From a virus (taxonomy: Duplodnaviria; Heunggongvirae; Uroviricota; Caudoviricetes), in the IMG/VR virus record IMGVR_UViG_2778261298_000003: a DNA stretch of 35,391 nt; one strand, 5' to 3'. This document shows positions 1 to 2,303 of the stretch, piece by piece. The position numbers and the translations under genes are program-made. Below the pieces are notes generated by a model. That model did not search any database, had not been told where the DNA came from, and worked only from the letters and a program-made list of their open reading frames with translations. The first letter of the stretch is position 1. Each line of letters begins with the position of its first letter.

Positions 1-1284
1 TTACAGACTTCTGGAAGGTTGCGCAGCTCTTACAACACGCGGTTGATCTTCCGCGGCGTCTTCCAGCGCACTTAAATCACGGTCTTTCACTTCTGGCATT
101 TTCAGCGCAGAGATTAAACCAATCACTGAATATGCCATGATCATAATGGCGATCGGATACCAGGATTCCGTCATGGTGCAGAAAATACCCGCCAGGATAG
201 GACCAAAACCGGAAGCGATAAGACCACCAATTTCTTTAGAAATAGCCATCCGGGTAAAGCGGTTTTTACAGCCGAACATTTCTGCCATGGTAATATTTTC
301 CAGAGCAAATAATCCCAGCACCGCACAGTTATGAATCACAATCAGTGCAACCATAATGGTGCTCGGGGCATAGCTTTTATCTACGATGATAGAAAGCATT
401 GGCCATGCCAGCACAATCGCGGAGGTATTCATAATAATATACGGGATCCGGCGACCAATTTTATCGGATAACCAACCAAGGAACGGAATGGTCATAAAGC
501 CGAGAATCGAACTGATCATCAATGCATCTGTTGGAATTGCTTTGTTAAACAATAACGTCTGCACTAAATAGCCCGCAAGGAAAGTCTGAATTAAACCTGA
601 GTTACCCGCCTGACCAAAACGCAGCCCTGTTGCCAGCCAGAAGGATTTGCTCTGGAACATGCTACCAGCAGGTGCAGGTTTTGCTGTCGGTTGGTTGCTG
701 TCGTTAACCTTCTCAAAAACCGGGCTTTCTTTCAGATTCATACGCAACCAGATAGCAAAGACCATCACGACAACGCTCGCCAGGAACGGTATACGCCATC
801 CCCACGCCAGCAGTTCCTCTTTACTGAGAATGAAGAACATAAAGGCCCAGATTGCCGTTGCGCTTAAAGTTCCGCAGTTAGTTCCCATAGCCACAAATGA
901 GGAGATAATTCCGCGCTTACCTTTTGGCGCATATTCCGCCAGCATCGTACCGGCACCGGAAATTTCCGCACCTGCACCCAATCCCTGAATAATACGCAGC
1001 GTCACCAGCAAGATGGGGGCAAAAACACCAATCTGTGCATAGGTCGGTAACACACCAATTAAGGTGGTACAGATCCCCATCATGGTGATGGTAATAAAGA
1101 GCACTTTTTTACGCCCTATTCTGTCGCCCATTTTGCCGAAAATAAATGCTCCGACAATACGCGCCACATAACCTGCACCGTAGGTTCCCATTGCCAGAAT
1201 TAACGCCATTGCCGTTGATGATTCAGGAAAAAATATTTCATGAAACACTAACGCTGCGCCGAGCGAATATAACTGGAAATCCAT
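1..1284 (-). CDS. ydfJ: MFS-family transporter (YdfJ-like), probably N-terminally truncated at the prophage junction
   Basis: 427-aa multi-helix hydrophobic protein with the MFS loop motif G-x-x-x-D-R-x-G-R-K (GKMGDRIGRKK) at residues ~50-60, earlier than in full-length family members; ATG at 1282-1284. Confidence 0.8.
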   Translation of the reverse strand: MDFQLYSLGAALVFHEIFFPESSTAMALILAMGTYGAGYVARIVGAFIFGKMGDRIGRKKVLFITITMMGICTTLIGVLPTYAQIGVFAPILLVTLRIIQGLGAGAEISGAGTMLAEYAPKGKRGIISSFVAMGTNCGTLSATAIWAFMFFILSKEELLAWGWRIPFLASVVVMVFAIWLRMNLKESPVFEKVNDSNQPTAKPAPAGSMFQSKSFWLATGLRFGQAGNSGLIQTFLAGYLVQTLLFNKAIPTDALMISSILGFMTIPFLGWLSDKIGRRIPYIIMNTSAIVLAWPMLSIIVDKSYAPSTIMVALIVIHNCAVLGLFALENITMAEMFGCKNRFTRMAISKEIGGLIASGFGPILAGIFCTMTESWYPIAIMIMAYSVIGLISALKMPEVKDRDLSALEDAAEDQPRVVRAAQPSRSL

Positions 1285-1887
1285 AATTCACAGGTGTTTT
1301 TTCCCATCCTGTGGTTTCCTTGGCGTTTTCTAGGTTTTTTCAGATAGTTGCATTTTTTAAAAAGCATCCTAAGTTCGATCTCAGTGTCTATCTGGGGCCT
1401 ATTTCTGTCCCATATATGCCCCAAAAAAACTCCCCAACAGATAAGTAGTTTTTTCATGGATTTATGCGTAAAATCAAGAACGGCTGGAAATCATTCAATA
1501 CTCACACTATCGAAAAATTTACCAGCCAACCGCAGCACGTTCTTGCATAAGGCGTGTCTGCGGTTTTTCAACTATTCAGATACATCACTCCCATCACATT
1601 CATTCCTCCGCATCAAAGGCATATAGGCTATATCACCTTGATATTTTTCTTTTTCAGATAAAAACTGTTATCTATGTATACTTTTAAACCCAATCCGTGT
1701 AGAGTCTCTGCATAAGATAGTTTGCAGTTGCCGCTTCAGCTTGCGCCATAAACCGCCTGATTTTTGCTGCCACCTGTTAGCATTCCTGTATACCTGAAAC
1801 GACAATGTTTATCTACGAACTTTAAGAACACCCAAGATAAAAATTGTCAACTATATCATATATAACACATTACTAATTCGAGGCTAT

Positions 1888-2001
1888 ATGAACAGCATAC
1901 TGATAATCACTTCTCTCCTTATCATATTCAGCATTTTTAGTCATGCCCTAATAAAATTAGGGATTGGCATATCCAATAACCCAGACAAAACCGATGTATA
2001 A
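1888..2001 (+). CDS. Candidate small hydrophobic protein (37 aa, [37 protein letters not shown])
   Basis: ATG preceded by GAGG about 5 nt upstream; single predicted transmembrane helix; TAA stop at 1999-2001. Not in the ORF track (below length cutoff). Confidence 0.3.
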
Positions 2002-2069: not shown

Positions 2070-2303
2070 ATGAAATCAAAAGACACCCTAAAGTGGTTCC
2101 CTGCGCAGCTTCCTGAAGTAAGAATTATCCTAGGGGATGCTGTAGTGGAAGTAGCAAAACAGGGAAGACCTATCAATACCAGAACATTGCTTGATTACAT
2201 TGAAGGAAACATAAAGAAAAAATCATGGCTGGATAACAAAGAATTATTACAAACAGCGATATCAGTTCTTAAAGACAACCAAAATTTAAATGGTAAAATG
2301 TAA
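2070..2303 (+). CDS. ydfK: YdfK/YnaE-family prophage protein (cold-shock-induced family in K-12)
   Basis: ORF-track frame 2037..2303; start re-set to the internal ATG at 2070 (MKSKDTLKWFPAQLPEV...), which has an AAGGAA SD 8 nt upstream; 77 aa. Confidence 0.75.
   Translation: MKSKDTLKWFPAQLPEVRIILGDAVVEVAKQGRPINTRTLLDYIEGNIKKKSWLDNKELLQTAISVLKDNQNLNGKM

Follow-up and report, generated by a model that had tools for sequence, protein, structure and literature searches.

The 37-codon ORF upstream of ydfK in a Qin-like prophage is ynfT, a gene under purifying selection for a small protein with a predicted membrane helix

Characterised small membrane proteins of E. coli such as AcrZ, MgtS and MgrB act by binding larger membrane proteins. 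Together with PmrR and KdpF they are about 30–50 aa long and have one transmembrane helix and a short conserved tail, a description that also fits YnfT, the subject of this study, with the helix in its case being a predicted one. The class of small inner-membrane regulators and YnfT have been detected by the same SPA-tag approach. YnfT has, however, no sequence relationship to AcrZ, MgtS, MgrB, PmrR or KdpF, and it differs from them in being prophage-borne, in belonging to a very narrow family and in having a membrane location that is predicted. Type I toxins such as Hok/Gef and PepG1 are a second group for comparison, as these are likewise small hydrophobic peptides of prophages, but YnfT is not a member of their families, no antitoxin RNA was found in a search of its region against Rfam, and it accumulates in normal growth.

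The closest described counterpart is the YnfT/YnaM protein of E. coli K-12, which has the same sequence, the same length and the same position at the end of the Qin prophage as the product of the ORF examined here. This ORF is located in a stretch of viral DNA (Caudoviricetes) of 35,391 nucleotides, IMG/VR record IMGVR_UViG_2778261298_000003, which was analysed as a whole and is referred to as the window. The initial annotation, made from the sequence alone, had described an ORF with a Shine-Dalgarno sequence and one hydrophobic helix upstream of ydfK, and every one of these elements was described correctly. It had further remarked that small membrane proteins at prophage ends often escape annotation, which does not hold for ynfT, as RefSeq, Pfam, NCBIfam and PHROGs all contain it.

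Identity of the gene and its prophage context

The ORF at 1888–2001 is the already known and annotated gene ynfT. In a megablast comparison of positions 1300–2700 with 5,426 complete E. coli genomes, the RefSeq label of the matching ORF is “ynfT: YnaM/YnfT family protein”, and the best E. coli matches to this region were 99.9% identical, not 100%. The coordinates of the ynfT CDS in strain IAI1 correspond exactly to 1888–2001, with the gene lying between ydfJ and ydfK. The counterpart in MG1655 is ynfT (b4748, 1632890–1633003), between ydfJ' and ydfK, which has a twin in the Rac prophage, ynaM (b4744). A single synonymous base distinguishes the window gene from MG1655 ynfT, and the proteins are 100% identical. 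Family assignments agree with this identity, with YnfT matching Pfam PF23676 over the full model (residues 1–37, 96.2 bits, cut-off 27), NCBIfam NF041477 (63.9 bits, cut-off 35) and PHROG 35882 (E = 3e-20). The Qin copy is named 'ynfQ' in a table of PMC6001520, while the current annotation is ynfT, and the gene was still among the uncharacterised ones in the 2024 y-ome survey. A search of the literature revealed no published membrane localisation, topology, binding partner or phenotype for YnfT, PADLOC gave no match of YnfT to a defence system, and a sequence search of the PDB found no relatives of YnfT or YdfK.

The first feature of the window is the 3' portion of ydfJ, a transporter gene (1–1284, minus strand), followed by a 600-nt gap and then by ynfT, ydfK, pinQ, tfaQ and a tail-fibre gene. 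The features of the ynfT region are as follows.

1528–1568, plus strand: terminator-like hairpin with a U-run, an inverted repeat (−20.7 kcal/mol, z = −4.87 against shuffles)
1653–1682, plus strand: distal sigma-70-like promoter candidate, TTCAGA-18-TATACT, predicted by a consensus scan
1826–1887, plus strand: conserved upstream block, containing AAAAATTGTCAA, the −10-like element ATA(T/C)ATAA(C/T) and GAGG at 1880–1883
1888–2001, plus strand: ynfT CDS, coding for the 37-aa YnaM/YnfT-family protein with one predicted transmembrane helix
2002–2069, plus strand: ynfT–ydfK spacer of 68 nt, with a promoter-like site (2003–2030), the ydfK ribosome-binding site AAGGAA (2057–2062) and a Fur-box cluster near 2045 (published prediction)
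2070–2303, plus strand: ydfK, coding for a cold-shock protein of 77 aa (Pfam PF27475)

At its other end, the window carries hokD (relF), which codes for a 51-aa type I toxin of the Hok/Gef family (34877–35032, minus strand; 82.9 bits on Pfam) and next to which a 95-aa ORF occupies the relE position (35104–35391, minus strand). With the end of ydfJ on one side and the relBE-hokD region on the other, the window spans the Qin-like prophage between them. Long intact ORFs of the size of tail and head genes (e.g. 901, 1159, 859 and 641 aa) occupy 3883–26200, all on the minus strand and unlike K-12 Qin, so that the prophage in the window is far more complete than its K-12 counterpart and appears to be a relative that has decayed much less.

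According to the ORF list of the window, ynfT consists of 37 codons for 37 aa. Its ATG is the first in-frame ATG after a stop, and no in-frame start exists farther upstream. The Shine-Dalgarno sequence GAGG is positioned 4 nt 5' of this ATG, and the alignment shows both the motif and its spacing to be retained in the Salmonella-type homologues. Residues 4–22 form the sole hydrophobic segment (19-residue Kyte-Doolittle mean of 2.52; summed Hessa-scale energy of about −1.8 kcal/mol), after which K23 and a polar tail follow. The AlphaFold2 model is a single helix covering residues 2–30 (pLDDT 88.7), so hydropathy and structure prediction both point to a single transmembrane helix, and on the basis of these models we consider it very probable that YnfT has a membrane helix. 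The charge distribution leaves the topology unfixed. Of the single-pass membrane peptide proposed initially, the peptide is real and translated (see below), while its membrane location is a prediction, as is any activity as a toxin or regulator.

Composition alone is not decisive for ynfT, because three of the 169 ATG-initiated ORFs of 25–60 aa in the window reach this hydrophobicity, ynfT itself included, and the known toxin gene hokD is among them. What is decisive for its status as a gene is the frame-specific purifying selection together with the published detection of the protein, and there is hardly any room for doubt that ynfT is a real, translated gene. Another short, very hydrophobic ATG-initiated ORF of 43 aa (MVFWFVTNLSEAVIVIILLFVPLEISLLVFLSDIFFRTILPKG; 28446–28577, minus strand; Kyte-Doolittle 3.02) fills part of a gap that larger ORFs leave close to the lysis region and has no match in Pfam.

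Selection on the frame and pairing with ydfK

The ynfT region is found in 2807 of the 5426 complete E. coli genomes (~52%), with up to three copies in each and at least 90% identity throughout. A DNA search of phage genomes additionally revealed a divergent homologue in Salmonella phage 118970_sal3 (79% nucleotide identity), which is an annotated ORF of 37 codons with a ydfK homologue behind it. Scanning IMG/VR with a degenerate pattern identified 109 ynfT loci, representing 17 DNA alleles and 9 protein alleles, all of 37 codons; as the pattern forced ten residues of the tail (25–34), these loci are no independent test of the tail.

The ynfT frame is under purifying selection. Of the 22 differences from the homologue in the Salmonella phage, which was found by DNA similarity, 14 are synonymous and 8 non-synonymous (pN/pS 0.16; binomial P = 3e-5). 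They are distributed 4/4/14 over the codon positions, with 14 of 22 in the third. The initial annotation had proposed comparing synonymous with non-synonymous changes in related prophages, and this comparison shows a conserved frame, as pN/pS against the homologues from Salmonella phages lies at 0.16–0.20 (P about 1e-5 to 1e-4). Among the remaining five frames, four give no signal, and a weak one (P 0.03–0.24) is seen in frame −2, the antisense frame that has its wobble positions in common with frame +1. When the analysis is restricted to codons 1–24 as a control for ascertainment, pN/pS is 0.25–0.33 (P < 0.01). Variable residues are 2–4, 8–10, 19, 21, 24 and 37, while residues 11–18 and 25–36 are invariant; in the DNA-found homologue, the polar tail (25–36) has 5 synonymous changes but not one altered residue. 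The constraint on ydfK is similar (pN/pS 0.13–0.14).

Judged by sequence searches, the family appears to be very narrow. A phmmer/HMMER pass of YnfT against 1.84 billion cluster representatives returned 4 clusters, three of which are truncated or frameshifted variants, and no wider family was detected with this 37-residue query, which has little power for distant relatives. A scan of genome contigs with YdfK gained little divergence, as it returned only near-identical Escherichia/Shigella loci and two decayed cassettes, from E. coli ECGI0523 and Shigella flexneri (L014, 2274–2471, and L016), in which the ynfT-like and the ydfK-like frames are both frameshifted. From these sequences, the two genes appear to be lost together as a cryptic prophage erodes.

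Homology between the E. coli-type and the Salmonella-type loci begins ~62 nt 5' of the ynfT ATG (~1826) and ends at the ydfK stop codon, with unrelated flanks on both sides; these boundaries define a mobile cassette. Identity between the two types is 55% in the upstream block, 76–80% in ynfT, 62% in the spacer and 83–86% in ydfK. The pairing of the two genes is close, with ynfT present in 2807 and ydfK in 2803 of the 5426 complete E. coli genomes, and with ydfK starting 68–75 nt downstream of ynfT (68 nt in the window) in 107 of the 109 phage-contig loci. In both remaining loci, ynfT and its 62-nt upstream block adjoin a tail-fibre assembly gene and ydfK is absent. Conversely, YdfK homologues of 55–64% identity from Enterobacter, another E. 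coli lineage and Limnobaculum have no comparable small ORF upstream. Because ynfT occurs without ydfK and distant ydfK homologues occur without the small ORF, the two genes are usually but not necessarily paired, and either can exist by itself. Our analysis adds to what was known of ynfT the purifying selection, the constant length of 37 aa, the tail that is invariant in one homologue, the pairing with ydfK that is ~1:1 but separable, and the tiny size of the family.

A side observation concerns two of the distant ydfK homologues, from Limnobaculum and an E. coli lineage, which in place of a ynfT-like small ORF have a divergently transcribed gene for a zinc-knuckle small protein of the YnfU family (PF23499) directly upstream (L129, 2218–2379; L131, 2170–2370), so that two different small-protein families of Qin are neighbours of ydfK-family genes.

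The predicted fold of YdfK itself, a three-helix model with a pLDDT of 80.7, is closest to YmgB/AriR. YcgZ, YmgA and AriR act on the Rcs phosphorelay. A comparison with the YcgZ-YmgA-AriR(YmgB) connectors concerns the partner YdfK, not YnfT, and rests on the predicted model, sequence identity being only 15% and the NCBIfam score 15.9 against a cut-off of 80. The ycgZ-ymgAB genes are not known to have a small membrane peptide as a companion.

Expression and transcription of the cassette

Translation of ynfT has been shown in published work. In the list of VanOrsdel et al. 2018 (PMC6001520), precisely these 37 aa appear under two loci, ynaE/ttcC and ydfJ/ydfK (1632890–1633003). Both copies are among the 36 small proteins detected in that study by chromosomal SPA tagging and immunoblot, and its authors note that both were also positive in a screen by tetracycline ribosome profiling. 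These data, along with the purifying selection, bear out the proposal of the initial annotation that a small protein is translated from this ORF. Weaver et al. (bioRxiv 10.1101/511675) found YnaM-SPA at a level above that of most newly found small proteins, and yet, despite this good accumulation, YnaM showed no start peak with Onc112 or retapamulin. Between −52 and about +22 around the ATG, the two K-12 copies, in Qin and in Rac, do not differ, and the 3 nt that differ within the ORF are all synonymous. Start footprints would for this reason not be assignable to one copy, and reads from the start sites of ynfT and ynaM, which would not map uniquely, would commonly be discarded. The absence of ribosome density at the start codon, which had been named as grounds for refuting the ORF, is thus unsafe and would have been a false negative in this instance.

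RNA-seq upon yaiX overexpression (PMC13058169) showed ynfT to be up 5.7-fold and ydfK 5.3-fold, accompanied by cspI, cspG, cspB, ymcE and deaD; this is one indirect experiment, in which reads from the Qin and the Rac copies are hard to separate. The co-induction with csp genes is consistent with ynfT taking part in the cold-shock response, and on balance we expect ynfT to be co-expressed with ydfK in the cold, with a corresponding rise of the protein.

Several older results on the “5' leaders” of ydfK and ynaE also concern this region. Prematurely ended transcripts from these leaders are described in the passage of PMC5089854 that cites Raghavan et al. 2011, and leader fragments of ydfK/ynaE were found to bind Hfq and were proposed to be riboswitch-like elements (PMC4152368). 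As these papers predate the discovery of the small proteins, the Hfq-bound leader RNAs are most simply read as the mRNA of ynfT and of ynaM. An information-theory scan (PMC2189734) predicted a Fur-box cluster of 17.1 bits at +8 of the old start codon of ydfK and of ynaE, and both genes were reported there to be Fur-activated; conversion of the published coordinate to the window is approximate and places the cluster near 2045, within the ynfT–ydfK spacer.

Among E. coli-type copies, conservation reaches 300–400 nt farther upstream than in the comparison with the Salmonella type, up to the hairpin at 1528–1568. In phage 2H10 and in a prophage of the O145 strain RM13514, dinI is located upstream of this region, and the hairpin is probably the terminator of this dinI gene, which related phages have and the window lacks. 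We infer that the hairpin ends transcription arriving from upstream and so insulates the cassette, which would have a promoter of its own between 1569 and 1887. The candidate at 1653–1682 is conserved in the E. coli-type copies and absent from the Salmonella type, and its use would result in a 5' leader of ~200 nt. No properly spaced −35/−10 pair is present within the conserved 62-nt block, where TTGTCA and the −10-like element are only 10–11 nt apart. The promoter-like site in the spacer (2003–2030), which is not conserved in the Salmonella type, could drive ydfK separately. The spacer contains no terminator-like site. In the model proposed below, the two genes would be co-transcribed.

The RNA of positions 1870–2110 shows no significant structure when compared with shuffles (z = +0.84), and a hairpin inside ynfT (1945–1961) is not retained in the Salmonella type. 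No Rfam family reaches its threshold in 1285–2700. A hit to CssrB on the minus strand (1531–1668, 25 bits against a threshold of 76) was dismissed as it is essentially the upstream terminator hairpin, and an inverted repeat (1801–1814 / 1835–1848) was treated as due to chance, since the other E. coli-type copies do not conserve it.

Alternative readings and a proposed role

Of the alternatives that we weighed, the one that survives best is that YnfT resembles a type I toxin or a holin, a peptide that damages or depolarises the inner membrane when expressed and is normally restrained by an RNA that is antisense to it or overlaps it. We consider this unlikely. YnfT is indeed small, hydrophobic and prophage-borne, it shares its prophage with a true type I toxin gene (hokD), and a minus-strand promoter-like site at consensus level (2079–2052) could yield an antisense RNA. 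A faint match to the type I toxin PepG1 (E = 0.055), however, scores just 13.1 bits, which is far below the cut-off of 70 and looks composition-driven, and neither Pfam nor NCBIfam assigns YnfT to Hok/Gef or any other toxin family. Nor does Rfam reveal a known antitoxin RNA family in 1285–2700, and the leader shows no stable fold by which the ribosome-binding site would be occluded (z = +0.84). Type I toxins are tightly silenced, whereas the tagged protein (YnaM-SPA) accumulates from its own locus in ordinary LB; a C-terminal tag could mask toxicity, and the toxicity of untagged YnfT is unreported in the literature that was searched. A single genome can tolerate as many as three copies, and the strongest constraint is on the polar tail, not on the hydrophobic core alone.

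Somewhat less probable again is a cis-acting role, with ynfT being a leader ORF (uORF) whose translation, or the membrane targeting of its nascent chain, controls ydfK, while the peptide itself has no function. Such a role would suit the position of ynfT 68 nt upstream of ydfK, within what was earlier named the ydfK/ynaE 5' leader and is described, in the passage cited above, as giving rise to prematurely ended transcripts, and it would also suit the ~1:1 occurrence of the two genes in E. coli. It does not explain why ynfT and the 62-nt block persist without ydfK in two phage contigs (2/109 loci), nor why the more distant ydfK homologues manage without ynfT. The peptide, moreover, accumulates stably and is under purifying selection over most of its length, with residues 25–36 unchanged in the DNA-found homologue. 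No attenuator-like structure was seen that couples the ORF to the ydfK start, and within the cassette only the upstream block is less conserved than the spacer.

That the functional product is an RNA, be it riboswitch-like or an Hfq-binding sRNA from the 5' leader, with the ORF incidental or the transcript having a dual function, accords with the co-immunoprecipitation of short leader transcripts with Hfq (PMC5089854, PMC4152368) but is highly improbable in view of the protein-type selection (changes mostly at third codon positions, a low and frame-specific pN/pS), the missing Rfam match, folding that is no better than that of shuffled sequence, and the loss of the lone local hairpin (1945–1961) from the Salmonella type. 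In its purely non-coding form this reading is very unlikely, while a dual-function ynfT RNA is possible.

We favour a process where YnfT acts as a protein, namely as an inner-membrane peptide that is encoded by the cassette, is expressed from the resident prophage along with cold-shock genes, and modulates a larger membrane protein. Taken as a whole, this model seems to us rather more plausible than not. In it, ynfT is the first gene of an accessory ynfT-ydfK cassette, a 'moron', which in lambdoid prophages of the Qin and Rac types has the attachment/dinI end on one side and the pin and tail-fibre genes on the other. The cassette is expressed from the resident prophage and not only in lytic growth, and its transcript rises along with the csp cold-shock genes. 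The helix of YnfT (~4–22, flanked by K23) would insert into the inner membrane, in an orientation that may be either one, and helix and conserved tail together may bind and modulate a larger membrane protein, possibly in concert with the AriR-like YdfK in the cytoplasm. The last step, that YnfT is a modulator of a membrane protein, is drawn by analogy with AcrZ, MgtS and MgrB and is put forward tentatively, as somewhat short of an even chance.

A bolder version combines several of these elements. YnfT and the AriR-like YdfK may constitute a prophage-borne, cold-induced two-part module that retunes a sensor or transporter in the inner membrane of the host (e.g. the Rcs phosphorelay) or blocks the entry of related phages, with the Hfq-bound leader being a dual-function RNA, which would base-pair with targets besides encoding YnfT. 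We regard this as a long shot.

As a discovery, ynfT carries little weight, since its annotation, its assignment to named families and evidence of its expression were already available. One implication reaches beyond this locus, in that genes duplicated within a genome cannot safely be refuted by the lack of a start-codon peak in ribosome profiling. The remaining value of the locus lies in the biology of an uncharacterised small protein that is present in about half of the complete E. coli genomes, often in two or three copies, that is clearly under selection, and that is linked to a cold-shock gene, ydfK. The invariant polar tail, the separability from ydfK and the AriR-like fold predicted for YdfK are potentially useful for functional work on this pair of prophage genes.
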